A DNA stretch of 64,000 nucleotides from Candidatus Woesearchaeota archaeon. GTDB lineage: Archaea; Nanobdellota; Nanobdellia; SCGC-AAA011-G17; PNOQ01. This document shows positions 23-62,357 of the stretch, one piece after another. The position numbers were made by a program, and so were the translations under genes. The number at the start of each line of letters is the position of its first letter. Positions within the stretch are counted from its first letter, which is position 1. The notes beneath the pieces were generated by a model. The model was given only the letters and a program-made list of their open reading frames with translations, had not been told where the DNA came from and did no database searches. The stretch is taken from NCBI GenBank assembly GCA_018302135.1, contig JAGWAE010000002.1:11803-75802 (forward strand), read 5' to 3'.

Positions 23-3000
23 TTGTCTGAAAATAAAGTTAGTTTGTTAAGTACATCGCTTAGTGATGTTACGCAAGATTCTATTATTTATGTAATGGAT
101 GGTGGTGAAAATGAAATTCAACTGGGCCAACCTTTGTTAAAAAATGTAAAAGATGAAAATGATAATTTTTATAGTTGGATTGTAAAAAATATTAATTCTA
201 ACAGTGTTGTTTTAGAACAAAAATTTGATAAAGCTAGTGGGTTAAGTAAAAAAACTATAACAATAGAGGTTAATAAAAATGGTGAATATATTCCTTACAG
301 TGATGGAACAACAAAATCAATTATGATAAAAGAAGTTAAAGTTGTTAGAAATGCTATCATAACAGTAACTCCTGGTTCTAAAGATAATTATGGTACTTCT
401 AGTTTTATAATACATATTCCAATTGAAAAAAGATTGTGGGATTGGACACCTGAAGAAATAGATAAAATGATTGCATCCACAGATAAAACTATAGATAAAG
501 TGGAGACAATAACTGAAAAATTAGGTAATGTTGTTAAAACTTGGAAAGGAATGTGTTTTGCTGTGTTTAGTTTTTTAGCTGTAAAAAATGCATTCTTCAA
601 TAATCCATTAGGAAGAAGATTGGCTGTTGAAAAATGGGAAGCAAAATGTAACGGTGCTATTAGTACTGGAACTCCCTTAAATGGTAAGGAGTATAGTGCA
701 GCCCAATTTGATAATTGTATGAGTGATAATTATGAAACTATTGAGCTTGATGTTAAAAAATCTGAAGAGCTGGTTAAGGAAACTAAAGAAGTAATGAAAG
801 ATTTTAACTGGGAAAAGAAAGAATCGGTTTCTAAAGCTGCAAGTGAACTTGGTGTAACTTCAGATGAACTTATATTGATGAACCAATATAACCAGCTAGA
901 GGCAGAAGATGTTAGAGATTCAGTATTCAATAAAAAATTTGGTGAAGGATTTAATGCTACTTCTTTTAATTTGAAGAAAGAGGAAACCAAAAAAATTCAT
1001 GAAAAAGTAACTGCTGCAGGATTAAATGTTAAAAATTCTGAAGATTTTAATAATATACAAGAAATTATAAATTCTATTAATGACAAGGGAGTTTCTTCAA
1101 AAGGGAATGATTTCTTTAGTAGTGAAGATGAAGTGGCAAAAAAAATAATAGGTGATGTAAATATTAACTATTTGGATTTAGACGGCAAAAAAACTGGTTA
1201 TAACATTGTAAAAGAAAATGAGGAATATTATTTATATCAGGATGGAACTAAGATTAAAGTTCAACCATATTTAAAAGAAGATAATCAACAGTTGACCAGT
1301 TCTTATGGTCAATTTTTTAAAACAAGTGATAATAAAATATATGTCGGTTCAGTAAATAGAGAATCATATTCTACTAGTTATTCTAACGGTAAGGGCAGTT
1401 TGATTTATGATGAGAATACAAAAAAACCTTTGTTTATACCAATAAAGTGGAGAAGAACACAAGAAATACCAAAGATAGACTATGCTAATTATATTGCTGT
1501 TGATCAAGAAATTATTGGTAGGGAATATCCTTATTCTGTTTGGAACGTTGGTTTAGATGGAAAAACTAATACGTTAGATGATCAGTTAGTTGTTAGTTCT
1601 GCTTTGTTGGCTAATCCAACAAATAATGAACTTAAAAGTTTAAAACAAGAAATAGAAAGAAGATATGAACGAGTTAATGTAAATCCAGATAAATCAGGAA
1701 AGAAAGTAAAAATTGATGGAGAAGAATATGCTGCACAACTAATTGGATCTAAAACTACAAGTGCAATTGGCGAATGTAGATATATGATGAGTGAAACTGA
1801 TTGTAAAATATTATTCGGAGTTTGTGACCCAGTAATGTGTCCAGCATCTAGATTTGATCTTGGTGGAAATTGGAAAGTAAGCAATGCAGTTCAAACTGGA
1901 ATAATTGGAAGTATAGTTTTAGGATTACCTAACTTTGATTTACCTTACGAACCTGTGCCGGTTTGTTTAACTGGAATACATGCAGGTTTAGAAAATATTG
2001 GAAGTATGTTGGGCAGTTTTAGAGATTGTTTAGAAACTGCAAAAGTTAAAGGAGAGTCTGTTGGTATTTGTAATGAAATAAGAAGTTTGTATATGTGCGA
2101 TATATTGTGGCAAGAAACATTGGCAATAGTTAATGTTTTTGGTGAATTAAATAAAATAATTTCTAATAAAATACTTGGAAAGTCTAACGGCGGAGGAGAA
2201 TACTTATCTTGGGATTCAAGTTGGAATCAGTTAACTAAGTCAGTAAGTTTCTTTACAAAAGATTATGCAAGTAGTGCATTTACAGCATTCCAGTCTAGAA
2301 GTACGAAAGAAATTGGAACTGAAATTTGTAAAGCTGCTATATTCGGAAAATATCCTGCTGGCGGAGATTTACTAGCACAATTAACAGAACCAGAAAGCCC
2401 AACACAATTTACTGGTTGGGTTGAAGAAGATAGGTATACTCAAGAAGAAGGAGGAAGGTCTTCATATAGAGTATATTACCATATTTATGCTGGAAGAAAT
2501 AATGATGTTAGATATAAAGTAATATTGAGAGATTTGCTTGGAAATGTAATGAGTGTAACTGATGATAATTATGCAACTGAAAGATTATTAAGAAAAGGAG
2601 AAAGTGTTGATAAAAGTTTCACAATAAATCCACCTGCTGGAAGAATTGGATTTACAAATATGTGTATAATAATAAATGGTGCTGAAACTTGTGGTTTTGG
2701 TAGTGTTTCTAGTAGTTTTTCAACCCAATATTTGAAAGATAAAATAATTGAAAGTCAAATTGGTAAGATAGAGTCTGCGGAAGATTGTAAACCAAGAACT
2801 TCTACTTACACACCAGGATTTACACAATCTGGGTTGGATATGAGATGTTCTGTTTATGATCCTGATGGTGTTGGTGATGATTGGGTTTGGACTGGAACTT
2901 GTGGATATGATGAAGAGAAAAGGTTCCAAGGAGATTGTTATTTATATAAAAAAGGAATTAATTTGTATGATGCTAGTTATAATATTTCTCAGCATATACC

Positions 3001-4948
3001 AAAACCAGATGGGCAAGAAACTGAAGAAAAATTTAGTGATAAAGAAATGATAGCATTAAAGAATCAATTTAATGAGCTAGTAAGTTTAGATGAAAAAACA
3101 ACAAGCACTAGTGAAAGATTAAATATTATTTCAAAATATAGAGAATTTATTAATTCTGAAATAACTACAGAAATAACTGCTTTAAGTTATTATAAAGTTG
3201 GTTATTTGTATTATAATATAGGAATAGATATGAAAACAAAAGTAGTAGAACAAGATAGAGCTAATGAAGAACAAGAAAGATTTAGTAAGTGTACTATAAC
3301 TTATGATGGAGATAAAAAAAGTACTGGTAAGGATGATAAAATTGTTCTTAAATTCATTGATAATGCTTGGATTATTAGTTCTTCTGGTGTATTATTAACG
3401 ACTGAATCAATAGATAATCCTATTAAAATAGAAGAAAAATTAGATTCATTCAGAATAGAAAATAAAGATTCTTGCAAACAATTGGATTCTTCTAAAGAAG
3501 AAGTTATAAAACAATTATGTGAAAATCTAGTCGGAAAAGGCTATGAAAATGGGCTTGCAATTATAGTTGATACAGCAAATGGAGAAAGTGATGATACTAT
3601 TCAAGTTGTAAATGTAAATGGTGAAAAATATGAACCTGAGCATAGAAAGGCTTCTGCATTAGAAATAATTAATTTGTGTGTTGGACAAACGGCGAAAGAA
3701 AGAGTAATAGACACAAGTGAGATGAATTGGTTAAGTGATATTGTTGGTCAAGAAATACTAATTAAAATTCAAGATGGAACAAAGAAGTGGTATGAATCTA
3801 AAGAATACACTTATTCTTTTTTGGATGGAAAAATTAATGGTGAAGACAAATCTTTTTCTGTTCAGAGTGTAAATGATTTGGTAAAATTAATTTTGGAAGG
3901 TGGATTAACAGGAAATTTGCCAAACATAGTAGTTATAGAAAATGAACAATATAAAACTTCTAGTACTTGGACAAGAAATTCTGGTGTTGATTTTAACATT
4001 TGGTTATTAAATGCTATGACTAATGCAGTTGTAGATGAACATTATCCTTTTGAATTAGAATTGAATAGGGGAAGGGATCTATTTGGTAAAAAAGGATTTA
4101 ATTTAGTTTGGAATGGTTTTGAATTAAGTAAAATGGAAGGTTATACAGATAGTAAATATCAAAATTCAGACTGGAATGGTTTTTTAAAACTAGTTTATAC
4201 ACTTTCAGATAAAGAAGATCTGAAATATTTAGAAATAAAATGTAAAGCCAGTGGTAAAATTACTAGATTAGATATAAATTTGGATGAAATTTATAAATAT
4301 TTTTCATCGGTTTCAAAATACATAGAGTCAAGTGGCTGGATAGAAAGGACAGTTGAAAGTTGTGGTATTGTTGAAGAAGTTGAGGTTGAAACTGGAGCTA
4401 TGGAATCAGTTATGAAATCTTATTCTACAAAAGGTGCATCTTTGTTTAATAAAGCATGTTATTGTGAAAATGATTGTGATGATTATGCAAAATGGATAGC
4501 AGAGTATGCACAGCAGTACAATGTTAATCCTATACTGTTACTTGCAATTATGATGAATGAAAATAATTGTGTTCAGAAAGAGGCAAAATCAAGTGCCGGT
4601 TGTGTTGGTTTGATGCAAATTTGTTCTTGGACACTATGTATTAAAGACATTCCTGAGTTGAACAAAGATAATTGGTGGGTTGTTTTAGGGAGTGATACTA
4701 AGGAATCTGCGGAAAAAAATATAAAATGTGGTGCCAGGATATTAAGGAATAGTTATTATGTATCCAAAGAAGGAGGTACTTTTCACCCATGTGTCGGCGA
4801 AGATAAAGTGTATACTGAATGGGAAGCTGCAGTAAGAGGTTATAATGGGTGGGATAATAGAAAATGTACCCCTGAAAATAGGAAACAGGATACATATGTT
4901 GAAGATGTGTTTGATATCTATGATGCCTTGAGTAGAAAAATAGTTTAA
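23..4948 (+). CDS. Giant protein (1641 aa or more, 5' end probably beyond window), Cys-rich, with C-terminal SLT/GH23 lytic transglycosylase-like domain
   Basis: Frame is open from position 2, with no upstream in-frame stop, and the first start candidate is TTG at 23, so the gene likely continues upstream. C-terminal about 130 aa carries the SLT signature: ILLLAIMMNENNCVQKEAKSSAGCVGLMQI (E...S...GLMQ catalytic motif) and AAVRGYNGWDN (AYNaG). The long N-terminal region has no recognisable domain. Confidence 0.8.
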   Translation: MSENKVSLLSTSLSDVTQDSIIYVMDGGENEIQLGQPLLKNVKDENDNFYSWIVKNINSNSVVLEQKFDKASGLSKKTITIEVNKNGEYIPYSDGTTKSIMIKEVKVVRNAIITVTPGSKDNYGTSSFIIHIPIEKRLWDWTPEEIDKMIASTDKTIDKVETITEKLGNVVKTWKGMCFAVFSFLAVKNAFFNNPLGRRLAVEKWEAKCNGAISTGTPLNGKEYSAAQFDNCMSDNYETIELDVKKSEELVKETKEVMKDFNWEKKESVSKAASELGVTSDELILMNQYNQLEAEDVRDSVFNKKFGEGFNATSFNLKKEETKKIHEKVTAAGLNVKNSEDFNNIQEIINSINDKGVSSKGNDFFSSEDEVAKKIIGDVNINYLDLDGKKTGYNIVKENEEYYLYQDGTKIKVQPYLKEDNQQLTSSYGQFFKTSDNKIYVGSVNRESYSTSYSNGKGSLIYDENTKKPLFIPIKWRRTQEIPKIDYANYIAVDQEIIGREYPYSVWNVGLDGKTNTLDDQLVVSSALLANPTNNELKSLKQEIERRYERVNVNPDKSGKKVKIDGEEYAAQLIGSKTTSAIGECRYMMSETDCKILFGVCDPVMCPASRFDLGGNWKVSNAVQTGIIGSIVLGLPNFDLPYEPVPVCLTGIHAGLENIGSMLGSFRDCLETAKVKGESVGICNEIRSLYMCDILWQETLAIVNVFGELNKIISNKILGKSNGGGEYLSWDSSWNQLTKSVSFFTKDYASSAFTAFQSRSTKEIGTEICKAAIFGKYPAGGDLLAQLTEPESPTQFTGWVEEDRYTQEEGGRSSYRVYYHIYAGRNNDVRYKVILRDLLGNVMSVTDDNYATERLLRKGESVDKSFTINPPAGRIGFTNMCIIINGAETCGFGSVSSSFSTQYLKDKIIESQIGKIESAEDCKPRTSTYTPGFTQSGLDMRCSVYDPDGVGDDWVWTGTCGYDEEKRFQGDCYLYKKGINLYDASYNISQHIPKPDGQETEEKFSDKEMIALKNQFNELVSLDEKTTSTSERLNIISKYREFINSEITTEITALSYYKVGYLYYNIGIDMKTKVVEQDRANEEQERFSKCTITYDGDKKSTGKDDKIVLKFIDNAWIISSSGVLLTTESIDNPIKIEEKLDSFRIENKDSCKQLDSSKEEVIKQLCENLVGKGYENGLAIIVDTANGESDDTIQVVNVNGEKYEPEHRKASALEIINLCVGQTAKERVIDTSEMNWLSDIVGQEILIKIQDGTKKWYESKEYTYSFLDGKINGEDKSFSVQSVNDLVKLILEGGLTGNLPNIVVIENEQYKTSSTWTRNSGVDFNIWLLNAMTNAVVDEHYPFELELNRGRDLFGKKGFNLVWNGFELSKMEGYTDSKYQNSDWNGFLKLVYTLSDKEDLKYLEIKCKASGKITRLDINLDEIYKYFSSVSKYIESSGWIERTVESCGIVEEVEVETGAMESVMKSYSTKGASLFNKACYCENDCDDYAKWIAEYAQQYNVNPILLLAIMMNENNCVQKEAKSSAGCVGLMQICSWTLCIKDIPELNKDNWWVVLGSDTKESAEKNIKCGARILRNSYYVSKEGGTFHPCVGEDKVYTEWEAAVRGYNGWDNRKCTPENRKQDTYVEDVFDIYDALSRKIV

Positions 4949-5032
4949 TGCAGAGGACAGGATTCGAACCTGCGAAGGCACTAAGCCATTAGGTCCTAAG
5001 CCTAACCCGTTTGACCGCTCCGGCACCTCTGC
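4949..5032 (-). tRNA. tRNA-Leu (anticodon UAG), long variable arm
   Basis: Reverse complement GCAGAGGTGCCGGAGCGGTCAAACGGGTTAGGCTTAGGACCTAATGGCTTAGTGCCTTCGCAGGTTCGAATCCTGTCCTCTGCA folds as a cloverleaf. Anticodon stem TTAGG/CCTAA, loop CTTAGGA, 15-nt variable arm, T-loop GGTTCGAATCC. No encoded CCA. Confidence 0.85.
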
Positions 5033-5097
5033 ACAAGAAGTTTAATATCAATTTTGTTTAAAAATGTTACTAAACTAACTAAAAATAATTAATACAA

Positions 5098-6273
5098 TTA
5101 GTTTTCTTCTCTTACTTGAGGATAAATAAATTCTTTACCTTCATAATTCCTAACTACAACTTCTTTATCGTCCATACTAACTATCCCTGCAGGTATTCTA
5201 ACTTTACCACCTCCACCAGGCGCATCAATTATAAAATCTGGAACTTCCATGCCACCAATATACCCACATAAGCTATTATAGATTTCCACTGCTTTTTCTA
5301 CTCTAGTTCTAAAATGATTTGTTCCTTTTACTGGGTCAGCTTGGTAAATATAATATGGTTTAACACGCATACTACCTAAACCAGACATCAACTTTTTCAT
5401 CGTTTCGGGGTTATCATTAACCCCTTTTAACAAAACAGTTTGACAACCGATAGGAATCCCTGCATCAGCTAACATATTGCAAGCTTTTCTGCTCTCGTCA
5501 GTTATTTCAGCAGGATGATTGAAGTGAGTGTTAACATATAACGGATGATATTTTCTTAACATACTTACTAATTCTGGAGTAACTCTCTGAGGTAATACAC
5601 ATGGAACTCTTGTGCCTATTCTTATTATTCCGTCTTCCCTTGTGCTGATTATATCATAGACAGATGAAATTATTCTTTCTAATGGAGCATCATCTAATAT
5701 GAATGGATCCCCACCAGATAAAATAACATCGTTAATTTCTTTAGTATTACTAATATATTCCAATGCTTTTTGAAGTTCTTCTTTTTTTGGTTGTTTCTTT
5801 GCATCTCCTACTTTTCTTTTTCTTGTGCAGAAACGACAATACATAGCACATTCATTTGAAACTCTTAGTAAAAGACGATTAGGATAACGGTGAGTTACAA
5901 GAGATGGAACGTTTTGTCTTGATTGGTGTTCAGGTTCTTCGTGTAATGGATCTTCCGTACAAACCTTATCTTCTAGTTCTATTGGATTAGGAATTGACTG
6001 TAAGTATAAAGGATCATTTATTCCTTCTATTAAACCTAAATAGTATGGATTAACTCTTGCAGGATATTGAGCGCAAACAGATTCTAGTGAACTTGCATCT
6101 AGTCCAAAATGATCTGCAATGCCTTGTGGGGAAGAAATGCTTTTTTTTAGAAGTTGTTTCCATTCTGGAGGATTGGAAAAATTTTGAGAAGTTTGATTTG
6201 TTGGGAGAAGTACAGGTTGTTTCAGCGTCGGATGTGGAGCCTCGCCTTGAATTATTATTGCTTTAGTATTCAT
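5098..6273 (-). CDS. Lysine 2,3-aminomutase family radical SAM protein (KamA/AblA/EpmB-like)
   Basis: CAMYCRFCTRKRK is the CxxxCxxC radical-SAM motif in the KamA-family context. Gly-rich PLP-binding-like region (DAPGGGGK) present. 391 aa. Confidence 0.75.
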   Translation of the reverse strand: MNTKAIIIQGEAPHPTLKQPVLLPTNQTSQNFSNPPEWKQLLKKSISSPQGIADHFGLDASSLESVCAQYPARVNPYYLGLIEGINDPLYLQSIPNPIELEDKVCTEDPLHEEPEHQSRQNVPSLVTHRYPNRLLLRVSNECAMYCRFCTRKRKVGDAKKQPKKEELQKALEYISNTKEINDVILSGGDPFILDDAPLERIISSVYDIISTREDGIIRIGTRVPCVLPQRVTPELVSMLRKYHPLYVNTHFNHPAEITDESRKACNMLADAGIPIGCQTVLLKGVNDNPETMKKLMSGLGSMRVKPYYIYQADPVKGTNHFRTRVEKAVEIYNSLCGYIGGMEVPDFIIDAPGGGGKVRIPAGIVSMDDKEVVVRNYEGKEFIYPQVREEN

Positions 6274-6362
6274 CTTACTTTTATTACGTGTTTTTACATG
6301 TTAATAATTTATAAAGTTTTCTATTATTTTATCGTCGAAAAAACTAAAAATTAGTTAAAATA

Positions 6363-6435
6363 AGCCTACGGAGGGATTTGAACCCACGACCTCCGCTTTA
6401 CTAAAGCGATGCTCTACCGGCTGAGCTACGTAGGC
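6363..6435 (-). tRNA. tRNA-Thr (encoded anticodon AGU)
   Basis: Reverse complement GCCTACGTAGCTCAGCCGGTAGAGCATCGCTTTAGTAAAGCGGAGGTCGTGGGTTCAAATCCCTCCGTAGGCT. Acceptor G1-C72, C2-G71, U73 is Thr-like. Anticodon loop TTAGTAA gives A34-G35-U36. One U-U mismatch in the T-stem. Confidence 0.65.
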
Positions 6436-6488
6436 AGTTATTTTTTAAGTATTGTATGTATATTAAAAAGTTTCTATAAACAAAAAAA

Positions 6489-6574
6489 TGTAGGGGAAGG
6501 GATTTGAACCCTCGAACCCACTAAGGGACAGGATCTTAAGTCCTGCGCATTTGACCAGGCTTTGCTACCCCTAC
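6489..6574 (-). tRNA. tRNA-Leu (anticodon UAA), long variable arm
   Basis: Reverse complement GTAGGGGTAGCAAAGCCTGGTCAAATGCGCAGGACTTAAGATCCTGTCCCTTAGTGGGTTCGAGGGTTCAAATCCCTTCCCCTACA. Anticodon stem CAGGA/TCCTG, loop CTTAAGA, long variable arm. Confidence 0.85.
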
Positions 6575-6612
6575 ATAACTTTAGAAGGAAATCATATTAT
6601 TTAAATAGCTTA

Positions 6613-7596
6613 CTAAATCTTTCTTAGAATTTGTTTCATACGATTTAATGTATCTATTGTTTCTTTTCCTTGTTTAAATTCTTTGTAATAAACAAAATAT
6701 CTTCTTATTATTTCTTGTTTTGCGGCTTCTCTACAAATTTTATCATTAATAATCCCGACTTTTGCCATGTTCAAACCCATATCAGTTGGAGATTTATAGC
6801 TAAAGTTATCTGAACTCGTCATTATACGCTTTAAAATTTTAAAGTTAAAAATATCTCTATTATAGTTTACTGCAGTTATACCATATGCTTTTTTATGATA
6901 AGTGTCTATCTTATTTTTATCATTTAAGTCTGCGGTTGCTGCTTCATAGGCAATGTTTACTGGGTGGTCTCTTTTTAAATTCCAAATTGGAAAAGTTTCA
7001 AACTTCGCAAAACTAGATTTAATATTATTCTTTCTTTCGTGGTTTATTTGTATTAAAGCAGTGGCCATTTTACCTGAGCCACCAGCTGGACCAGTTATAA
7101 TAACTAGTTTATTTTTTGTAGGAATATATGGTTGTTGTTCATATCCTTTTAAGATTAAACTAATATTATTGGGATATCCTTTAATTTCTCTGTGAATAAT
7201 TACTTTTACTCTTTGTTTTTTTAGTTTTCTAATAAATTGAGTAAGTTTTTGATTTTTATATAATGTTATAACTACAAAATTTACTTTTATGCCAAAACTT
7301 TTTAGGTCTTTAATATCTTTTAACGTTTGTTCATCATGAGTTAAGTTAAAATCACCAAGAACTTTCTTTTTTTGTATATTTTTTGCGTTAACGCAATATA
7401 TTATATCTCTATTTTTTAATGTTTTTAGAATTTTTATCTTATTCGTTGGGTCATAACCAGGTAAAACTCTTGACGCATGATAATCATAAACTAACTTTCC
7501 ACCAAATTCTAAGTAAAACTTTTCGTATTTTTTTATTCTATCTTTTATTGCTTTAGTTTGGGCTTTTATATATTTTTTTGAGTCAAAACCTTGCAT
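6613..7596 (-). CDS. Hypothetical protein with P-loop-like motif (ITGPAGGSGKM)
   Basis: 327-aa ORF flanked by tRNA genes. Gly-rich GxxGxSGK motif. No family recognised with confidence. Confidence 0.5.
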   Translation of the reverse strand: MQGFDSKKYIKAQTKAIKDRIKKYEKFYLEFGGKLVYDYHASRVLPGYDPTNKIKILKTLKNRDIIYCVNAKNIQKKKVLGDFNLTHDEQTLKDIKDLKSFGIKVNFVVITLYKNQKLTQFIRKLKKQRVKVIIHREIKGYPNNISLILKGYEQQPYIPTKNKLVIITGPAGGSGKMATALIQINHERKNNIKSSFAKFETFPIWNLKRDHPVNIAYEAATADLNDKNKIDTYHKKAYGITAVNYNRDIFNFKILKRIMTSSDNFSYKSPTDMGLNMAKVGIINDKICREAAKQEIIRRYFVYYKEFKQGKETIDTLNRMKQILRKI

Positions 7597-7639
7597 AACT
7601 TAATTCTAGATTAAATAATTTATAAATGTATTTAAAAAA

Positions 7640-7713
7640 AGCCCCAGAAGGGATTTGAACCCTCGGTCTATTGATTACGAATCAATTGCTCTACCGGACT
7701 AAGCTACTGGGGC
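7640..7713 (-). tRNA. tRNA-Thr (anticodon CGU)
   Basis: Reverse complement GCCCCAGTAGCTTAGTCCGGTAGAGCAATTGATTCGTAATCAATAGACCGAGGGTTCAAATCCCTTCTGGGGCT. Anticodon stem ATTGA/TCAAT, loop TTCGTAA, U73. Confidence 0.8.
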
Positions 7714-7818
7714 GTTTTTCTGACAAGTGAAACAAACAGGTTTACCTTTCTCGTAAGTTCCTTTTATCTTGCCCAAGAAAGTTTCTTCTATTTCTTTATT
7801 ACATTTTAAACATTTCAT
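7699..7818 (-). CDS. Small C4 zinc-ribbon protein (39 aa): MKCLKCNKEIEETFLGKIKGTYEKGKPVCFTCQKNAPVA
   Basis: CxxC-22-CxxC pattern. Not in the ORF track (under 60 aa). No obvious SD. The 3' end overlaps the 3' end of the tRNA at 7640-7713 by 15 nt. Confidence 0.35.
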   Translation of the reverse strand: MKCLKCNKEIEETFLGKIKGTYEKGKPVCFTCQKNAPVA

Positions 7819-7853
7819 ATTAAAAATAAAAAGTAGAGAATTAATATAGTTTT

Positions 7854-8279
7854 CTAAAATCTTAAATCTTCTTTGATTATCATATTATTTCTAGAAACCC
7901 CAAAGAATTTTTCTGCATGCTTTATAACAACTTCAGAATCAAAATCCTTGCATGAATATAAATCAAAGTTGATTCTATTCTTATTTGTAAAGGCATGGAA
8001 TGTTATGTGAGAATAATCTATTACAAGAACACCAGTTAAACCTGGGTTCTCTGGAATACCTTTAACAATTATTGGTGGGGTTAATGCTCCCATTTTAACT
8101 TTAGCAGGTAATTCTTTTAGAAAACTGTAAAATAAATGGTAATCGTTTGTTACTTCTTTAGATACACCATATACTTCAAGTCTTATATGTCTACCGTCTT
8201 TTTTAATGTCCTTTAAATTGACACCTTGACCAATCTTAAGATCATTCCAAGCAATCTCTTGATTTATATTAGATTTCAT
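7854..8279 (-). CDS. speH: Pyruvoyl-dependent S-adenosylmethionine decarboxylase proenzyme-like (SpeH/AdoMetDC class 1)
   Basis: 141 aa. GVLVIDYSHITFHAF resembles the E-S-H-I-x-I-H-T-W autoprocessing region. Size and FDLYSCK motif fit small archaeal/bacterial AdoMetDC. Confidence 0.6.
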   Translation of the reverse strand: MKSNINQEIAWNDLKIGQGVNLKDIKKDGRHIRLEVYGVSKEVTNDYHLFYSFLKELPAKVKMGALTPPIIVKGIPENPGLTGVLVIDYSHITFHAFTNKNRINFDLYSCKDFDSEVVIKHAEKFFGVSRNNMIIKEDLRF

Positions 8280-8395
8280 CTTTTAGTACCTCTAAAAAAA
8301 TATTTTTCATGTGAAAAATTATAGAAATAATTACTAGTTAAAATTTGGCAATGTTTGCGCCATCCGCCATAGTTTTCTAAAATAACATAACTCAT
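8276..8395 (-). CDS. Small ORF (39 aa, MSYVILENYGGWRKHCQILTSNYFYNFSHEKYFFRGTKR) translationally coupled to speH
   Basis: Strong SD (GGAGGT, 8-nt spacer) before ATG at 8395. Its TGA stop overlaps the speH ATG (ATGA). Not in the ORF track. Confidence 0.3.
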   Translation of the reverse strand: MSYVILENYGGWRKHCQILTSNYFYNFSHEKYFFRGTKR

Positions 8396-8599
8396 TCTAA
8401 AATACCTCCAAATCTTTTTTAAAAATTGAAAAGAGATTAGGATAGAAACGAATAGATACCAAATCGAACCAATGTCTTCCTTGTCTCATATAATCATCAA
8501 ACATTTATTATTTTTGGATTACGACGAACCCTGCCCCTCGTTATCAAATAGAATAAATTTAATTAAATAATTAGTTTATAAACTTTTTTATTTTCAGAA

Positions 8600-9259
8600 C
8601 TATTGAGAGATGGTTTGCTTGACAAAATACTTTTCTATGTAGTATCTTAACAGCTGTTCTGCCTCGGGAATACATGTTTTGTCTTGAATTCCAATTTTGG
8701 TTCTTTTTTGCAAGTCTTCAAAAGTTCTTGCACCATCCAAAACTGCCTCTTCGATATCGTGGTCAGTTATTTTTAGAATTTTATCGACGATTTTTATTCT
8801 GTCATTTTTTATTTTATCTAATTGATTTGTTTTTTTGTAGTAATCATTTATAGCGGCTCTTAATGCTTTGTCAGCTAGAACAGAACAATGAAATTTCCTT
8901 GTTGGTAAACCGTCAAGTCTGTTGGCAATGTCTTGAGGTTTAATTTCTAAAGCTTTTTCTATTTCCATCCCACCATTTTCAGTTATCATTGTAGAAAACA
9001 TAGATGTTGATGCGATTGCCGAGGCGCAGCCAAATGTTTGCCATTTACAGTCTATAATTTTATTATCTTTAACTTTAATCCACATTTTCATCATATCTCC
9101 ACAAGCAGGACTCCCTTCTTCTCCAATGCCATCAGCTTCTTTAGTTAACTTTTCTGATTCTTCTTTAGTTTTAGCTAAATTTTTTGGCTCAAAGAAATGT
9201 TTTTTTACAGTTTCAGAATAAAACCATTCTGTTCCGTCTTTGGATTTGACATCATACAT
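8600..9259 (-). CDS. iscU: Fe-S cluster scaffold protein IscU/NifU-like with C-terminal extension
   Basis: Conserved cysteine ligands ACGDMMK, FGCASAIA and HCSVLA. Overlaps iscS by 8 nt. Confidence 0.85.
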   Translation of the reverse strand: MYDVKSKDGTEWFYSETVKKHFFEPKNLAKTKEESEKLTKEADGIGEEGSPACGDMMKMWIKVKDNKIIDCKWQTFGCASAIASTSMFSTMITENGGMEIEKALEIKPQDIANRLDGLPTRKFHCSVLADKALRAAINDYYKKTNQLDKIKNDRIKIVDKILKITDHDIEEAVLDGARTFEDLQKRTKIGIQDKTCIPEAEQLLRYYIEKYFVKQTISQ

Positions 9260-10433
9260 TTTTTATATCCTCTATTTTTAGGTTTACTGGAGAAATATTT
9301 CTTAATTCCTGTACTATTTTAGGAATTATTTGTAAAACATAATCTATTTCTTCTTTTGTTGTATTTTTGCTTAAAGAAAATCTTATACTACCATGAGCTG
9401 CTTCGTATGGTCTACCTAGCGCTAGAATAACATGACTAGGATCTAGAGATTTAGATGTACATGCTGAGCCCGAAGAAGCACAAACCCCTTCAGAATCTAA
9501 TTTTAGCAAAACTGCTTCCCCCTCTATATTTAAGAAAGTAATATTAACGTTATTTGGTAATCTTTTTTCATTATCACCATTTAGGATTGTGTTTTCTATT
9601 TTTAATAAATTTTCAATAAAATAATCTCTTAATGGTGTTAATTTCTTTTTGTAATCTTCTTTTCCTTTTTGTGCTATTTCTAAAGCTTTTGCAAAACCTA
9701 CTATGGCTGCAATATTTTCTGTACCAGATCTTAAATTGAATTCTTGACCCCCACCATGAATTAATGGCTCTATTCTTATACCTTCTTTTTTATATAAACA
9801 GCCCACTCCTTTCGGGCCATAAATTTTACTTCCATTAATGCTTAATAGATCTACATTTAAATCCTGAACATCTAAAGATTCTGAATTTGCTGCTTGACAT
9901 GCATCAGTATGGAATAAAATATTATTTTCTTTTGCTATTTTTGCTATTTCTTTTATTGGTTGAATTGTTCCGATTTCATTGTTAGCATACATAACACTAA
10001 TTAAAATTGTTTCTTTTTTTATTGCATTTTTTATTTTCTCTGGGTTTACAATTCCATTGGGTTCTACTGGAACATAAGTAACTTCAAAACCTTGTTTTTC
10101 TAAAAATTCTAAAGTGTCTAAAACAGCATGATGCTCAATAGTAGTAGAAATTATATGTTTTCCTTTATTTTTTAATTTATTTACAACTCCTTTTATCGCT
10201 AAATTAACACTTTCTGTTCCAGAACCAGTAAAAATTATTTCATCTGAATGACAATTTAATATTTTGGCAACTTTACTTCTAGAAAGATTTAATGCATGGG
10301 CTGCTATCAATCCTTTAGCGTGCATACTTCCCGCGTTACCATATTCGATTTGGAAATATCTGTGCATTTCCAAATAAACTAATGGATCTACTGGAGTAGA
10401 TGATGATGTATCTAAATATATTGTTCTGTTCAT
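9252..10433 (-). CDS. iscS: Cysteine desulfurase IscS/NifS (PLP-dependent)
   Basis: Class V aminotransferase fold. Active-site loop SSGSACTS, PLP-lysine region SINGSKIYGPKG. Confidence 0.9.
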   Translation of the reverse strand: MNRTIYLDTSSSTPVDPLVYLEMHRYFQIEYGNAGSMHAKGLIAAHALNLSRSKVAKILNCHSDEIIFTGSGTESVNLAIKGVVNKLKNKGKHIISTTIEHHAVLDTLEFLEKQGFEVTYVPVEPNGIVNPEKIKNAIKKETILISVMYANNEIGTIQPIKEIAKIAKENNILFHTDACQAANSESLDVQDLNVDLLSINGSKIYGPKGVGCLYKKEGIRIEPLIHGGGQEFNLRSGTENIAAIVGFAKALEIAQKGKEDYKKKLTPLRDYFIENLLKIENTILNGDNEKRLPNNVNITFLNIEGEAVLLKLDSEGVCASSGSACTSKSLDPSHVILALGRPYEAAHGSIRFSLSKNTTKEEIDYVLQIIPKIVQELRNISPVNLKIEDIKNV

Positions 10434-11385: not shown

Positions 11386-11417
11386 TTTTATAAACTTCTT
11401 TTACTTTTTTTATTTAT

Positions 11418-12605
11418 ATGAAAAAATTGGTGATGTTAGTAATATTAATTATTTCTATAAATATTAGTTTCGCGGAAGAAATTAATATTCCAGAAACGTT
11501 CACAGCTGAGACAAGTGTTAATGAAGTTACTACGTATTATTACGCAGGAGATAAATTGCTTGCATCTGAAAATAATAATATTGTTACATATCATTACCAA
11601 GATAGATTAGGTAGTGATGTTAGTTCTAAAACACTACCTTTTGGACAAGAGATTGTTTCTTCTGAAAGATTTTCATTTACTGGGAAAGAGTTGGATTCTG
11701 AATTATATTATTTTAATGCTAGGTATTATGATTCTGATTTAGGAAGATTTACTTCTGTGGATCCTGTGCAAGATAATCATCCTTATGCTTATGTTGCAAA
11801 TAATCCTATGAATTATGTGGATCCTGATGGTCGTGAAATCCATGCTTATACATGGACAGTCGATGGTGTGTCCAAAACTATTGATTATACTGTTGAAGGT
11901 GGTGCCAATGTAGCTGATTATATTAAAATGATGGATGAAATTCGTCAATTTTCCCCTAGATTTTTTGGAAAATCTACTAATAGGTATGTTTTTGGTGCTG
12001 CGATTAGTGAATATGATAAAACATTAAATGTTGTTCATGTTAGTGACCCTTGGGATTTAATTCATGAAATGATGCATTCTATTGCTACGCCAGATATTGA
12101 AAGAGGACTATTAACTGAATTTGCATCATATAGTTGGGAAGAGGAATTTTTCAAATATATGGAGAATGTAAAGGGTGTTGTGCCACAGGGTAGAACTCCT
12201 TTATCAATGGCTGCTGCTGAAGGCCCGCAAAATTTTTATGAAGCATTTAGAAAAAGTTCCTATATGCAAAGTTATCCTGAACTTACGGAGACATTTTTGA
12301 AAAAAGATCTTGCTCGTATAATCAAAATATTTAGTTCAGAATCTCTTGGGTTGGTTGGAGATTCTTATGATATTACTTATGGATATACCCACCCTGAAAT
12401 ATTATCACAAGAATGGTCTTCTGGACAACTCTTTTTAGAACATTATCAATCTTTTGGTGGTATGGGTGCACAATTACATCAAAGAGCTTTTGCTAGCTTG
12501 AGTGCTTGGGCCGTTACTATGGGTGAGATGACAAGTAGAATTGTTCAAGAAATTGGTGCTGCAGGTGGCAAACAGGCTTTAGGAAGAGAGAGTTATATTC
12601 AGTGA
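11418..12605 (+). CDS. Secreted RHS repeat-associated core domain protein with C-terminal HExxH zinc-metallopeptidase-like toxin domain (polymorphic toxin, short form)
   Basis: Signal peptide MKKLVMLVILIISINISFA. RHS core hallmarks: YYYAGDKLL...YHYQDRLGSD...PFGQE...FTGKELDSELYYFNARYYDSDLGRFTSVDPVQDNHPYAYVANNPMNYVDPDG. Variable C-terminus contains IHEMMHS (HExxH). Confidence 0.8.
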   Translation: MKKLVMLVILIISINISFAEEINIPETFTAETSVNEVTTYYYAGDKLLASENNNIVTYHYQDRLGSDVSSKTLPFGQEIVSSERFSFTGKELDSELYYFNARYYDSDLGRFTSVDPVQDNHPYAYVANNPMNYVDPDGREIHAYTWTVDGVSKTIDYTVEGGANVADYIKMMDEIRQFSPRFFGKSTNRYVFGAAISEYDKTLNVVHVSDPWDLIHEMMHSIATPDIERGLLTEFASYSWEEEFFKYMENVKGVVPQGRTPLSMAAAEGPQNFYEAFRKSSYMQSYPELTETFLKKDLARIIKIFSSESLGLVGDSYDITYGYTHPEILSQEWSSGQLFLEHYQSFGGMGAQLHQRAFASLSAWAVTMGEMTSRIVQEIGAAGGKQALGRESYIQ

Positions 12606-12757
12606 AGAGGATAATTTTTTAAAGTAATTTTTGTATATTTGTTAATTTAATAATAACTAGGATGAAATTGGTGTAAGAGGAATTGCTCCGAAATACTTGA
12701 ACCTTCTAGAATTTTTAAAAACATTTTAAGTGAAATAATGAGAATGTTAGAACAACG

Positions 12758-45972: not shown

Positions 45973-46227
45973 ATGGCCTCACCTTTACCAAAATGGATTA
46001 TGCAAAGATATTCTATCCTTTGGAATACTTTTCATGATAAAGAGTTTGATCATGATGCTGCTTTTAACTTATTGAATAATGAGAAAACGGTTAGTATTGC
46101 TATTTCTAAATTAAGAAAAAATGGTTGGTTGGAAATTAAACTAGATGAAAATGATGCTAGAAGAAGATTGTATAAATTAAAAAGTCCAGAACAAGCTGTA
46201 AAAGAAATAGGTGAGAAAAATGAATAA
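45973..46227 (+). CDS. Small hypothetical protein (84 aa), overlaps start of the giant surface protein gene
   Basis: Possible winged-helix-like segment (TVSIAISKLRKNGWLEI). 17-nt overlap with the downstream gene. Confidence 0.4.
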   Translation: MASPLPKWIMQRYSILWNTFHDKEFDHDAAFNLLNNEKTVSIAISKLRKNGWLEIKLDENDARRRLYKLKSPEQAVKEIGEKNE

Positions 46228-49200
46228 TAAATATTTTATTCTTTTAATGATTTGTATAACTTTAGTTGTTGAATTCGCTTCTGCAGAAATAATCAGTAGT
46301 TGCCAAACTATATCTAGCCCAGGATCTTATGAATTAAACCAGAGTATAACTAGTACTACAACATGTATGACTATTGCAGTTAGTAATGTAGATTTTAATT
46401 GTAATGGTTCAACTATTTCTTATAATTCTGGGGGAGGAGCGACTAATTATGGAATTAATGCTATTTATCTGCTTGTCCCCTTAGAAAACATAACTATAAG
46501 AAATTGTGATATTAAAGATGTAAACGCCGCAGGAACCCCATCGGCAGGAATACAATTTACTAGAGTTACAGATTCAGTTATATTAAACAACACTATACAG
46601 ACTAATGGAACTACATTAAATCATGGAATTACGCTTACAACCGGATGTAAAAGAAATAGAATAGAAAATAATACTATAAATACTTGGGGGAGTGGAATAA
46701 CAAATGTAGGAATTTACCTTAATACAGAGGCATCAAATAATAATATAACTGGAAATATTGTAAGAGGTGTAGGTACATTAACTAGTTATGCTGTTTATTT
46801 TGCTGCCGACGCTAATAATAATAGTGTAAATAATAATAATCTTTCTACAATTTCAACGGTTGTTGCAGCTAATGCTGACCCACATGTTGTTGTTATCAGT
46901 GCGAGTAATTTGAATAATATCACTAATAACAATATATATGGTGAAGGCGCGCAGAGAGGATATGCTGTGTATATTACCACAAATGCAGAATCAAATAATA
47001 TTCAAAACAATGATATTATTATTAATCTTACTACTGGTGCAATAAGTTATGGAATTTATATTTTAAGATCACCTTCAACTAATGTGATAAATAATACTAT
47101 AACCCCTATTGGGACAGGTACTTTAAGAGGAGTTTATGTTGCTAATGCACAATATACTAACATACAAAATAATAATATATCTATCCTTAGCCCCGCTATA
47201 ACAACTGCAGATGGGATTCTTGTTACTGCCTCACCAAATAGTTCAGTTTTAAACAATGATATTTTAATTAATGCAACTTCTACTGTCAATGCCATATCTT
47301 CCACTTCCTCTGCTAATAATCGTATCGAAAATAATAATATAAATATTTTAGGGAATGGTACTGCAACGACATTTAATGGTGTTTTGACTACTACTTCGTA
47401 TTCTAACTCTATAATAAATAATAGTATATATATCAAAGGAATAACTGTATTAAACGGAGTGTTACTCACTACTTCTCCAGATAATATTGTTGAAAACAAT
47501 TCTATAAACGTTACTGGAACTGGAGCTACAAATGTTGGAATTTATTTATCTTCTGCTGCACCTTCAAATATTGTAAGAAATAATACGATATATTCCTCAG
47601 CATCAATTCCTGCATATGGAATATATTTACTTTATGATGGAGTAAATAATCTTATAGAAAAAAATACTATAACTACTTATGGAACAACTAATGCTAATTT
47701 TGGTATTTATTTAAGCACCGGAACCAATGAGAATAGGATAATAAACAATACAGTTACTACACTGGGCGCAGGTACTACAAATTATGGAATTCATTTGCTT
47801 ACATGTAATAATAATTATGTTGGTTATAATAATATTTCTACAAACGGTACTACTGCAAACCACGGGATATACATTCTTACACAAGCAAATAATAATACTG
47901 CAGAAAATAATATAATTTCTACGTATGGAACAACAGGTAGTTATGGAATTTATATCAACAGTGCGAATTATAATAAATTAATTGGAAATAATATCACTGC
48001 TAATGGATCAACACAAGTTGCTGGAACTACAACAAGTAATTATGGTATTGTGGTAGGTGCAAGTTCTTACTTTTCTGAAGTTTATAATAATACAATTTAC
48101 AATGGGGGCGGGAGATATAATTATGGAATTTATAGTCTTACTAATTCTAGATGGGGAACATTTACAGGAAATAATGTGAATACTGGTGGAACTGGTAACC
48201 TTAATGTGGGAGCGTATATTTCAGAAAGCCATTACAATACTTTAGAAAATAATGTATTTTCTACATCTGGATCTACTACAAACCATGCAGTATATTTACA
48301 TTCTAGTGCCAGGGAAAATGTTATAGAAAATAATAATATATCTACCTCAGGTGGAACTGACTCCCATGCATTCGCATTTTTATATGTTGCTGCAGGAGGA
48401 TATCCGGAGAGGAATATTATCAAAAATAATGAACTTTTAAGTATTTCTGGTAGAGATATTGACTTTGCAACTGCATCTATAAATGGAACCACACTTATTG
48501 ATCAAGTTATTGGAAATTATTCTTTTACTGGTACAGCAGGCACATTAATAATAAGAAATGAATCTGCAGGCCAAATAGAATTTGGAGCAGTTTTGTCTGG
48601 GGCGAGTACATTTTTTAGTAATAGAATATTCATATGGCCTAATTTAGCCGGAATAGAAGAAAGTACTTCTGCTTTGAATAAATCGGCTACAATAACATTT
48701 TATAATGTTTCAACAAGTTCGACAGAACTACAAATATATAGAAATGGGGGGATTTGCCCAGAAACAATATGTACTAATCTAACAACTATGCAGGCTGGAA
48801 ATGTAACATTCAATGTTACACGGGGAGGGAATTATTCCATACTTGCAACATCATCATCACCATCAGTTGAATTAAATTATCCAGATAATAGTTTTAATAG
48901 TTCTTCTCAGAATATAACTTTCAATTTTACTGCTATAGACGATTCTGTTGGAGACTTAAATTGTAGTGTTTATATTAATAATGTAATAAATCAAACAAAT
49001 TATTCTGTTTCTAATGGCACATTAACTAGCTTTATTATTAATGGTTTACAAGAAAATAATCATACTTGGTATATTGAATGTTATGATTATTTAGGGAATA
49101 GAAATGTATCAGAAACAAGAAATTTTTCTGTAATAATCTCTCAACCATCTTATAATTTCAATTATCCTGGAAATAATTCTTATATCAATGATGTTTCATC

Positions 49201-51714: not shown

Positions 51715-53538
51715 ATGTTAGATTTATTTCCTTTTGACAAACATAGAGATGCACAAGAATCTTTTATGAAAGTTGTAGGCACTGCATTAAAACATAAAAA
51801 AGATGTTTTGGCCCATGTTCCAACTGGAGTTGGAAAAACTGTTGCAACATTAGCTCCGAGTTTAGCTTTTGCTTTGGAAAATAAAAAACATGTTATATTT
51901 TTAACTTCTAAACATACACATCATAAAATTGCTGTTGAAACTTTAAAAATAATAAAAGATAAAAAAAATATTAATTTTCAAGTTGCGGATTTTATTGGTA
52001 AAAGATGGATGTGCCCAAGAGAAGATGTTGGAGCTTTAAATTCTAAGGAGTTTGGAGAATTTTGTAGATATGTTGTAGAAAATAAAGAATGCCCCTATTA
52101 TGAGAATTATTATAGTAGAAGTAGAATTTTTACTAATAAATTATTACTTGATGAACTAAATAATAACATCTTTCATGTTGAAGAATTAATTGATAAATGT
52201 AGAAATGCACATGCTTGTAGTTTTGAAGCGGCTGCTGATTTGGCTAAAAAATCTAAAGTTGTAATATTAGATTATTATCATGTTTTGAATCCAATAACAA
52301 GAGCTAATTTTTTTAAGAAGATTGAAAAGGATGTAGAAGATTGTATTTTTATCTGGGATGAGGCACATAATCTGGCTGGAAGAGCAAGAGAATTGTTAAG
52401 TGAATATATTAATACTTTAAGTTTGGATTCTGCGATAAAAGAAGCTGAAAGGTTTAATCAAGATTTGGCTAGTGTTATAGTTGGGTTAAAAGAAAGTTTG
52501 TTGGGTATGAGTGAAAAATTAAGTTTAGATAAAAATGAGGTTTTAGTTAATAAAACTGATTTGATTAATTTGAAAGATGAAATTATAACTGAAATGTTTG
52601 AAACTGCTGAAAAAGTTATTGAAGAAGAAAAAAGAAGTTATTTAAACTCTTTAGCGGGATTTTTGATGCTTTGGAAACAAGAAGACAAAAGATTTACGAG
52701 AATTTTAAAAAGAAGTTTTAACAGAATGGGCAAACCTATTATAAGTTTGTATTACAACTGCTTAGATCCAAGTATTGTACTGGCTCCGATAATCGAGCAA
52801 GCACATTGTAACATTTTTATGAGCGGGACTTTACATCCTTTAGATATGTATGAAGAAATATTTGGTTTAAAAACTCCAATAAAAGTTGAATATGAAAATC
52901 CATTTCCTTCTTCTAATAGATTAGACTTGATTGTGCCTAACATTAGTACTAAATATACTTCAAGAAATTTGGAAATGTATGAAAGAATTGCTGATAATAT
53001 TAATGAATTAATTAAAGTGATAAAAGGAAACAAAATATTCTTTTTTCCAAGTTATGAATTGATGGATAAAGTTAAAGATAAAATATTTGGTGAAAATCTT
53101 TTTATAGAGAACCAAGGAACTGATAAAGGTTCTAGAGAAGCATTACTTAGAAAATTTGTTGAGTTAAAAGATAAAAGTTGTAGTTTATTGGCTGTTAGTT
53201 CTGGCAGTTTTGGTGAAAGTGTAGATTTAATTGGTGATCATTTAGTTGGAGTTGTTATAGTTGGCATTCCTTTTGGCAAAGTAGATTTAGAAAGCAATGA
53301 ATTGATTAGGTATTATGAAGAAAAATTTAAGAAAGGAATGGAATATGGTTATATAATTCCGGCATTTACTAGTATTATGCAGAATTCAGGCAGGTGTATT
53401 AGAAGTGAGAACGATAAAGGAGTTATCGTTTATTTAGATGAAAGATATTTATCTCCAAATTATAAAAAATATTTTCCATCCACTGTTAAGTTTAAAGTAG
53501 CTAGAGATTATAAAGAAGTTGAGAAGTTTTTTAAATAA
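51715..53538 (+). CDS. XPD/Rad3-like superfamily 2 DNA helicase with Fe-S domain
   Basis: Walker A VPTGVGKT, DEAH box IWDEAHNL, four Cys (WMCPRED...FCRYVVENKECPYY) as in the XPD Fe-S domain, C-terminal Helicase_C_2-like region. Confidence 0.75.
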   Translation: MLDLFPFDKHRDAQESFMKVVGTALKHKKDVLAHVPTGVGKTVATLAPSLAFALENKKHVIFLTSKHTHHKIAVETLKIIKDKKNINFQVADFIGKRWMCPREDVGALNSKEFGEFCRYVVENKECPYYENYYSRSRIFTNKLLLDELNNNIFHVEELIDKCRNAHACSFEAAADLAKKSKVVILDYYHVLNPITRANFFKKIEKDVEDCIFIWDEAHNLAGRARELLSEYINTLSLDSAIKEAERFNQDLASVIVGLKESLLGMSEKLSLDKNEVLVNKTDLINLKDEIITEMFETAEKVIEEEKRSYLNSLAGFLMLWKQEDKRFTRILKRSFNRMGKPIISLYYNCLDPSIVLAPIIEQAHCNIFMSGTLHPLDMYEEIFGLKTPIKVEYENPFPSSNRLDLIVPNISTKYTSRNLEMYERIADNINELIKVIKGNKIFFFPSYELMDKVKDKIFGENLFIENQGTDKGSREALLRKFVELKDKSCSLLAVSSGSFGESVDLIGDHLVGVVIVGIPFGKVDLESNELIRYYEEKFKKGMEYGYIIPAFTSIMQNSGRCIRSENDKGVIVYLDERYLSPNYKKYFPSTVKFKVARDYKEVEKFFK

Positions 53539-61689: not shown

Positions 61690-61763
61690 TGGGGCTGCTC
61701 GGATTTGAACCGGGATCACCAGGACCCCATCCTGGTAGGCTAACCAAGTTACCCCACAACCCC
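61690..61763 (-). tRNA. tRNA-Pro (anticodon GGG)
   Basis: Reverse complement GGGGTTGTGGGGTAACTTGGTTAGCCTACCAGGATGGGGTCCTGGTGATCCCGGTTCAAATCCGAGCAGCCCCA. Anticodon stem CCAGG/CCTGG, loop ATGGGGT. One C-A mismatch in the T-stem. Confidence 0.7.
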
Positions 61764-61768
61764 AAAAA

Positions 61769-61842
61769 TGACCCTACTGGGATTTGAACCCAGATCTACC
61801 GGGCCGAAACCGGTGACTCTATCCAAGTTAAGCTATAGGGCC
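61769..61842 (-). tRNA. tRNA-Arg (anticodon UCG)
   Basis: Reverse complement GGCCCTATAGCTTAACTTGGATAGAGTCACCGGTTTCGGCCCGGTAGATCTGGGTTCAAATCCCAGTAGGGTCA. Anticodon stem ACCGG/CCGGT, loop TTTCGGC. Confidence 0.75.
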
Positions 61843-61894
61843 TTAAAATATTAATTTTCATAAACTTATAAAATAATCGGAAAGCTTTTTATAT

Positions 61895-62347: not shown

Positions 62348-62357
62348 TTTTTTATAT

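Follow-up and report, generated by a model that had tools for sequence, protein, structure and literature searches.

A secreted RHS-core protein with a variable tip from a Woesearchaeota archaeon: a possible cartridge of a split Rhs/Tc-like effector system

The gene considered here lies on the + strand (11418..12605; ATG start, 395 aa plus stop) of a stretch of 64,000 nt from a Candidatus Woesearchaeota archaeon (contig JAGWAE010000002.1, positions 11,803 to 75,802), referred to below as the window. Its product (hereafter the query) is MBS3172029.1 at NCBI, under the name 'RHS repeat-associated core domain-containing protein [Candidatus Woesearchaeota archaeon]', and is very probably a secreted, self-cleaving RHS-core protein that ends in a polymorphic effector tip. 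Far from being a lone oddity, the gene belongs to a family that numbers hundreds of members. We further propose, at a confidence slightly short of even, that this DPANN archaeon possesses a split polymorphic effector system of Rhs/Tc-like kind, in which the query serves as one of the cartridges.

The query would be exported by Sec, as its signal peptide suggests. The mature N-module (aa 20–139) would consist of terminal YD hairpins followed by the RHS core, which in Rhs and TcC proteins is the C-terminal plug and aspartyl autoprotease, and by homology a self-cut at the end of this module would free a tip of 256 aa. The tip appears to be a fast-evolving domain for which HExxH and a conserved downstream Glu make a small zinc metallopeptidase the most likely identity at the level of motifs. 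The shell would probably be supplied in trans by a secreted, core-less giant of 1977 aa which seems to belong to the same genome, the N-module of the cartridge docking in the open end of the giant's barrel. The targets would likely be other organisms (the host or neighbouring bacteria) and not kin.

Signal peptide, N-module and RHS core

An initial annotation, made from the letters of the window, had assigned a signal peptide and an RHS core to the query, and both assignments hold. By inspection, residues 1–19 (MKKLVMLVILIISINISFA; 11418..11474, +) form a Sec-type signal peptide with a KK n-region, a 10-aa hydrophobic window (Kyte-Doolittle mean 3.5) and an S-F-A site, with cleavage predicted before E20. 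A comparable N-terminal hydrophobic stretch is found in 116 out of 120 relatives (337 relatives were matched in total; family counts, conservation and clusters refer throughout to the 120 listed among them). The segment that follows, EEINIPETFTAE (aa 20–37; 11475..11528, +), was delimited by column conservation (consensus AKEVxIPExFE of the 120 relatives); it is conserved family-wide and falls outside any Rhs model. That it might be a docking peptide, e.g. for the dockerin-like end of the giant, is pure speculation.

Two YD-repeat-like beta hairpins come next (aa 38–66, TTYYYAGDKLLAS ... VTYHYQDRLGS; 11529..11615, +). They were recognized by residues that are nearly invariant among the 120 relatives (Y40, Y42, G44, Y58, Y60, Q61, R63, L64 and S66) and by AlphaFold strands at aa 38–58, for which the predicted local distance difference test (pLDDT) score is 77–93. 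These hairpins correspond to the last shell repeats ahead of the core in full-length Rhs proteins. At codon 63 (11604..11606) the window encodes R63, the nearly invariant consensus of the family, and the copy on ENA contig ANAN16-1_SAMN03842451 scaffold_468 encodes G63; the two DNAs differ by 2 nt in 16,107.

The RHS repeat-associated core (plug/aspartyl autoprotease; aa 74–138; 11637..11831, +) was confirmed by the hidden Markov model check proposed in the initial annotation: TIGR03696 matches with 70.2 bits against a curated cut-off of 32.5 (E = 1.6e-19; model positions 3–75 of 76), and the query belongs to the TIGR03696 core superfamily. When the core is aligned to YenC2 (residues 632–689), R102, D115 and D135 fall on YenC2 residues 650, 663 and 686; these three residues, as well as G138, are invariant across the 120 relatives. 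Sequence matches in the PDB (YenC2, TccC3, Rhs1, Tse5 and SGS1) cover just the C-terminal plug; for the first four proteins these are the last ~60 residues of the shell chain. The core is closed by a second DPxG motif, D135-P-D-G-R139 (11820..11834, +), read from the sequence, which is also the point where family conservation and the query's similarity to its sister cartridges end. In Rhs1, the plug of ~95 aa is an aspartyl protease that cuts after the second DPxGL (after DPLGL and before A), and mutation of the Asp stops cleavage (PMC8636562). Since the catalytic Arg/Asp/Asp and the DPxG are intact and family-invariant in the query, self-cleavage and release of the tip are predicted, and the second-DPxGL rule of Rhs1 places the predicted cut after R139.

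No RHS_repeat or YD match was obtained for the query with either Pfam or NCBIfam, and ~55 mature residues stand ahead of the core; a Pfam scan at E ≤ 10 returned nothing, and NCBIfam returned the core and, below threshold, a match to the first 22 residues. In place of the long in-cis YD-repeat beta-shell of canonical Rhs proteins, which spans hundreds of residues, the query has just the two YD-like hairpins. The initial claim that there is no YD-repeat shell stands for the polypeptide but probably not for the system, as the 1977-aa giant and three sister cartridges fall within the accession block MBS3172029–MBS3172704.

The variable tip and its HExxH motif

Conservation collapses at residue 140: the frequency of the top residue drops from 0.63–0.84 in the common N-module of ~140 aa to 0.15–0.25 beyond it, and the C-termini of the 120 relatives sort into 66 clusters. 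This agrees with the variable tip of polymorphic-toxin type that had been suggested, and the tip starts right after the core, as in canonical Rhs proteins. The hypervariable region of the query, its presumed effector (aa 140–395; 11835..12602, +), has 256 aa and an isoelectric point (pI) of 5.1. The 120 relatives, whose source names are mostly Woesearchaeota, 'archaeon' or Nanoarchaeum, are 223–496 aa long; 116 of them display the same short architecture, and the median N-module end is residue 142. Tip size is 200–300 aa in 108 relatives (interquartile range 221–258 aa), with a median pI of 4.9; this narrow length and this acidity of unrelated tips, otherwise unexplained, are compatible with a packaging limit.

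The contrast between the two halves is illustrated by P0002 and P0003, whose N-modules are essentially identical up to residue ~105 and whose tips are unrelated. Similarity between the window and the sister loci ends at 11837 and no synteny was found between them beyond the N-module, so that in-situ replacement of a tip at one locus could not be demonstrated. Among species-representative genomes, the N-module together with its signal peptide was matched in full in Woesearchaeota, Nanoarchaeota and a small number of other archaeal metagenome-assembled genomes (MAGs), and bacterial matches nearly all cover the core alone. A constant N-module carrying variable tips is the signature of a polymorphic toxin family.

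The tip of the query contains, as annotated, an HExxH: HEMMH at aa 216–220 (12063..12077, +), a candidate zinc-binding/catalytic motif that is conserved in homologues. The chance of finding it in a tail of the query's composition is ~0.5%. In the family, 29 of the 120 tips, from 13 clusters, possess an HExxH, where chance would give 0.65 and none of 500 shuffles gave more than 4; a chance HExxH was rejected, the motif being conserved in homologues. HEMMH aligns with HELAH in P0005 and with HEYQH in P0063, in local alignments anchored on the motif. The tip and P0005 reach a Smith-Waterman score of 74 versus 33.5 ± 4.9 for shuffles (z = 8.2; 0 out of 1000 shuffles reach the score), in an alignment that spans the region from HExxH to a tail motif described below; P0063 is a weaker, HExxH-anchored relative (z = 4.9). 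The same pairwise alignments brought out a candidate third zinc ligand in the stretch R229-G230 ... E234-F235, then E241–E243 (12102..12146, +). A Glu followed by an aromatic residue is found 14–15 residues past the second His in the query, P0005 and P0063, and RG is kept in all three; The spacing from H220 to E234 is 14 residues, and in P0005 and P0063 the corresponding Glu stands at 15. E234 is the candidate ligand, with E241–243 as alternatives.

Homologues of the tip are few. An exhaustive phmmer search of 1.84 billion cluster representatives at E ≤ 1e-3 found only the tip itself, and a profile built from the tip, P0005 and the tail of P0081 found, among 5.8 billion proteins, two input proteins only, with P0005 as the clear homologue. 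This profile gave noise against the PDB and 78 pattern matches on metagenome contigs, none of which was confirmed.

The initial annotation had called the tip a zincin-like protease. In favour of this are the conservation of the motif, the Glu 14–15 residues on and the enrichment of HExxH; however, neither the query nor any of the 120 relatives matched a Tox-MPTase or other peptidase model of Pfam. The structure prediction that had been recommended as a check gave models too poor for use. AlphaFold gave a pLDDT of 39.9 for the tip with a 3-sequence alignment and of 55.3 for the full-length protein with 120 sequences, the latter model being fairly confident just at aa 1–60 and 101–120. HExxH sits in a helix after two strands in both models, but these are of low confidence and untrustworthy, and a Foldseek comparison with the PDB, which gave no match at E ≤ 0.001, was meaningless and was discarded. 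Three results count against the proposed role of the tip: no Pfam or NCBIfam model matches it, nor does any PDB sequence at a meaningful E-value; neither AlphaFold model of it is usable; and hhalign of the query/P0005 profile against the 12 other HExxH tip clusters gave probabilities <5%, mostly on the motif alone. Because of these hhalign values, one common zincin family for all HExxH tips is unsupported. Given the absence of a peptidase model match and the unusable AlphaFold models, the zincin call is probable only, and we hold with modest rather than strong confidence that the tip is a small zinc metallopeptidase.

The end of the tip may be a separate module. Its motif, LGLVGDSYDITYGYTHPE (aa 310–327; 12345..12398, +), is common to P0005 and P0081, and is followed by a helical stretch at aa 357–384; the pattern GDxYDxxxGYxxPE is present in the last ~85 residues of the query and recurs in P0005 and P0081 (z = 5.8 for P0081). 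The whole tail module (12345..12569; GLVGDxYDxxxGYxxPE plus the helical stretch) is joined to middle domains that are zincin-like in two proteins and kinase-like in P0081, and it is this association with different middle domains that speaks for a separate module. A related end, YDxxxYGRxNEMT, is found in P0010 and P0027. One could therefore imagine that the active element is the helical tail (aa ~310–395), e.g. as a membrane-active or docking element, and that the HExxH domain is a releasing/processing peptidase or an inactive scaffold. Such a division of labour would suit the kinase-like middle domain of P0081, and HExxH domains are known to act as releasing peptidases in polymorphic toxins (Zhang et al. 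2012, PMC3482391). It is nevertheless quite unlikely, for the RHS core already provides a release mechanism, and the helical tail, which matches no known family, is found in just 3 of the 120 relatives.

Most of the 120 tips have no Pfam match; those recognized are FlgD-Ig/sorting-tail-like (7 tips), YkuD L,D-transpeptidase (1) and PT-TG pre-toxin (1), plus single weaker matches to a few other families, e.g. DUF4846 and tannase. The cognate immunity gene that lies directly downstream in canonical Rhs loci is lacking here, as the initial annotation had stated: the 152-nt spacer to the convergent ferredoxin gene (12606..12757) contains no + strand open reading frame (ORF) of at least 20 aa, hence no immunity-like one, and the next genes are the convergent ferredoxin gene and an MFS transporter gene. 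The genes downstream of the relatives are mostly housekeeping ones (dNK, DNA polymerase B, amino-acid kinase, methylase, GTPase), and small unannotated ORFs lie between cartridges at a few loci. A gene for a 167-aa multi-pass membrane protein, located between two cartridges (L013 3028..3531), is among the few immunity-like candidates in the family.

The absence of an immunity gene at the query would also suit a nutritional or cell-surface protease that is no weapon: a DPANN cell with few biosynthetic genes would export diverse hydrolases, with the RHS module as a reused handle for export or processing. The tips are indeed acidic, secreted and enzyme-like, and some relatives have Ig-like/sorting-tail, tannase-like or YkuD domains, which are not classical toxins. 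We consider this improbable, since the extreme turnover of tips on a constant N-module (66 clusters in 120 sequences, and same-genome paralogues with near-identical N-modules) is the signature of a conflict system; moreover, a PT-TG pre-toxin domain is present in the family. As for the targets of such an effector, non-kin organisms are suggested by the absence of an adjacent immunity gene, by at least one family tip that acts on peptidoglycan (YkuD) and by a lytic-transglycosylase giant in the window. The latter is a 1641-aa ORF (23..4948, +) with a C-terminal SLT lytic transglycosylase domain (aa 1492–1616, E = 3.5e-8). A peptidoglycan-cutting domain on an archaeal giant suggests an interaction with bacteria, and this protein, together with an SLT/LysM gene (L086 9206..9949) located 52 nt upstream of the cartridge P0004, fits bacterial targets.

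Core-less giants, a shell in trans and known systems

The candidate shell is a giant of 1977 aa (MBS3172611.1, J4438_03465; L086:14770-20703) annotated at NCBI as 'hypothetical protein'. It has a signal peptide, RHS/YD repeats (RHS_repeat, E = 5.7e-13; TIGR01643, E = 1.5e-12), a Cys-rich insert, a dockerin-like end, and weak matches to SpvB (23.4 bits on an N fragment) and TcdB_toxin_midN; no match to the TIGR03696 core was found in it. In our reading, its last repeat (…ATYYVYGIGINPLQVVE) would be the strand after which full-length Rhs proteins continue into the YYHxDHLGS…PFGE core, and the cartridges would begin with exactly the continuation of this strand (TTYYYAGDKLLAS…YHYQDRLGS…PFGQE). Sister cartridges whose N-modules are nearly identical lie on both sides of the giant: one starts 38 nt past the giant's stop codon, and two others are located ~3.6 kb upstream and ~4 kb downstream.

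The pairing of a core-less giant with a short cartridge is seen in three lineages or more, and in fragmentary form in three others. At L027 the gap between giant and cartridge is 3 nt, and two cartridges have the same N-module; at L092 a 1785-aa core-less giant is followed, after 10 nt, by a 399-aa gene product with signal peptide and core; L013, L011 and L055 show looser or fragmentary layouts. Archaeal cartridges form tandem arrays at L006, L013, L017, L021 and L027. The L092 giant (4440..9797) displays, where the L086 giant has its Cys-rich insert, a C-type lectin domain (aa 217–293, E = 1.8e-5), which hints at a carbohydrate-binding role in target recognition.

The giant and the query can be assigned to one genome with some plausibility. 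The NCBI accession block runs from the query (MBS3172029.1) through a P0003-like cartridge (MBS3172410.1), the giant (MBS3172611.1) and a P0004-like cartridge (MBS3172614.1, J4438_03480) to a P0002-like one (MBS3172704.1), the G+C content of the giant's locus (0.294) equals that of the window, and their tetranucleotide correlation is 0.99. From the consecutive numbering and the matching composition we infer a single MAG that encodes one core-less giant and four or more cartridges; of these, the query is a dispersed one.

That the giant supplies the shell in trans seems to us nearly as probable as not. Since both cartridge and giant have signal peptides, any assembly would take place outside the cell. 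The general form of the proposal is more tentative and we would not bet on it: Woesearchaeota and related DPANN archaea would possess one plug-less, Sec-exported cocoon and scattered, interchangeable, Sec-exported cartridges of plug plus toxin, with a homogenized N-module of 140 aa, assembled outside the cell and perhaps at its surface via the dockerin-like end.

Several observations weigh against a split system of this kind. We know of no Rhs or Tc system that assembles outside the cell. The tips are acidic, with the median pI given above. The SpvB and TcdB_midN matches of the L086 giant are weak (19.6 bits on the full protein versus a 22-bit cut-off) and are absent from the L092 giant. About 20 of the ~30 archaeal cartridge loci have no giant within 4 kb, and for the query the giant lies outside the 64-kb window. 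The same-genome placement draws on accession numbering and composition, in place of a closed genome. There was no sign of a TcA-like partner, and the fetched loci, which were all that was covered, contain no TcA-type Pfam family. The assembly of cartridge with giant and the activity of the tip are deduced from sequence.

Some of these facts would be expected if the query were a stand-alone secreted effector, in which the RHS core is a self-removing pro-domain or an export/anchoring module, a shell is not needed and the giant is a mere neighbour. Most members of the family stand alone among housekeeping genes (the query at mscL/ferredoxin/MFS, relatives by DNA polymerase B, amino-acid kinase or GTPase), each cartridge has a signal peptide, and probably a promoter, of its own, and cartridges are far commoner than giants. 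This explanation is a real contender, albeit on the whole an unlikely one. The plug is buried in the barrel in solved Rhs structures (PMC8636562), and aa 61–100 of the N-module are not folded confidently on their own by AlphaFold, even with the 120-sequence alignment. Besides, the giants consistently lack exactly the part that the cartridges carry, their genes abut with gaps of 3–38 nt in three lineages, and unrelated tips keep to a narrow size of 200–300 aa.

The same scan of metagenomes provided control contigs of higher G+C content, presumably bacterial, in which YD proteins often have a fused core. The orphan core ORFs downstream of these have no hydrophobic N-termini (0.2–0.8 versus 3.9–4.0). 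Where short RHS-core ORFs stand beside YD genes that bear a core (examples at L123, L124, L130 and L140), they are commonly orphan cassettes without expression, and one might suppose that the query is such a decayed fragment of a former full-length rhs gene, non-functional and with an HExxH by chance. Yet the query ORF is intact, with a signal peptide at its start, and the identical protein is encoded on 15 public contigs from several samples, always with mscL on one side and the convergent ferredoxin/MFS pair on the other. Furthermore, 116 of the 120 relatives are equally short, the catalytic residues are invariant and HExxH is conserved in homologues. A pseudogene or orphan fragment is thereby largely refuted and we give it hardly any weight.

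Orphan rhs core-CT cassettes do resemble the archaeal cartridges in being short ORFs that start near the core, have alternative tips and often form tandem arrays; those on the control contigs differ by the missing hydrophobic N-terminus and by a main gene that retains its own core, whereas the archaeal cartridges possess their own start codon and signal peptide and the giant upstream is core-less. By analogy, the split system would work most like the TcB-TcC cocoon (YenB/YenC2, TcdB2-TccC3) with dispersed orphan TcC genes. In that cocoon the YD-repeat shell is made of two chains from two genes, as it would be here, and the RHS core aspartyl protease, with a hypervariable toxin of 200–400 aa behind it, forms the end of the second chain; the core of the query aligns to YenC2 632–689 and to TccC3, and SpvB and TcdB_midN are weakly matched by the giant. 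In Tc systems 'orphan' tcC genes lie scattered over the genome, TcC proteins are 851–1050 aa long and their toxin region is 201–400 aa (PMC7861908). The 256-aa tip is within the latter range, as is the tip length of most family members, but the query, at 395 aa, is far below the size of a TcC with its N-terminal RHS shell half: the second chain gives ~120 aa here (plug and two hairpins) instead of ~680 aa of shell. Other differences from TcB-TcC are the Sec signal peptides on both chains, the lack of a visible TcA, the archaeal organism and the dockerin-like/Cys-rich end of the giant.

The Rhs effectors of type VI secretion systems (P. laumondii Rhs1, P. aeruginosa Tse5, Salmonella Rhs) share with the query the RHS core plug, paired DPxG motifs, a cut just before the variable toxin and a constant/variable boundary that permits tip swapping (PMC8636562). 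Unlike the query, they are single chains of 1100–1900 aa with PAAR/VgrG-binding N-termini and a cognate immunity gene; the query has no in-cis shell, no type VI context, Sec export and no immunity gene. RHS-linked zincin tips (Tox-MPTase1-5, HopH1-like) are small C-terminal HExxH domains as here, and the table of Zhang et al. 2012 lists no immunity protein for them (PMC3482391). The query tip differs from them in having no match to a Pfam Tox-MPTase or peptidase model, and in having one clear homologue in 5.8 billion sequences.

Further genes were noted around the cartridges and giants. Cys-rich proteins are encoded at L011 (5252..6585; three small secreted paralogues of 132–159 aa ending ...CC...), just upstream of the giant at L086 (13410..14777; 455 aa) and at L013 (3565..3963; 132 aa), and may be accessory components. 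A gene for a PIN + T2SSE (PilT-like) ATPase lies between cartridge P0004 and the giant (L086 11535..13322).

Genomic surroundings and significance

The genome is of DPANN type, as had been supposed, and belongs to the Woesearchaeota, a DPANN origin being well supported by the names that the closest relatives bear; the window has a G+C content of 29% and carries archaeal housekeeping genes (ATP-dependent DNA ligase, TrmB, class II ribonucleotide reductase). The query gene is separated from the upstream mscL gene by 32 nt, within which a TATA-box-like element, TTTATAAA (11387..11394, +), can be read 24–31 nt upstream of the ATG; this could represent an archaeal promoter of the gene's own, in which case the mRNA would be leaderless or nearly so. 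Neither paralogues of the query nor a YD giant were found in the 64-kb window. An ORF of 1818 aa (46211..51667, +) combines right-handed beta-helix/NosD repeats with a PRC-barrel at its C-terminus and probably encodes a giant surface protein; an XPD-type helicase gene (51715..53538) comes next. Seven tRNA genes occur in two groups (4949..7713 and 61690..62430, the latter on the - strand), with closely spaced pairs at 6363–6435 and 6489–6574, and at 61690–61763 and 61769–61842.

No description of mini RHS-core proteins with a signal peptide, or of a split plug/shell Rhs, was found for DPANN in the literature searched; the main archaeal polymorphic-toxin survey was outside this search and may contain one. 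The literature on TcB/TcC in archaea yielded nothing relevant. No archaeal polymorphic toxin system has been characterized experimentally (PMC8416519).

Little is known of how DPANN archaea, given their tiny genomes and obligate partners, attack other cells, hold them or feed on them. The family described here is a concrete, testable set of effectors: the constant self-cleaving handle makes tips easy to spot in metagenomes, a candidate shell partner is available, and the tips are almost all unannotated, many of them with HExxH. If assembly in trans is false, the RHS core is still shown to be able to serve as a stand-alone release module. If it is true, this would be the first case of an Rhs/Tc-type encapsulation system that is loaded in trans once exported, and the first from archaea to be described; it would change the current idea that an Rhs cocoon has to fold around its own C-terminal toxin, and would represent a natural plug-in system for protein encapsulation. 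A genome of roughly 1 Mb could in that way field many effectors against hosts or bacteria.

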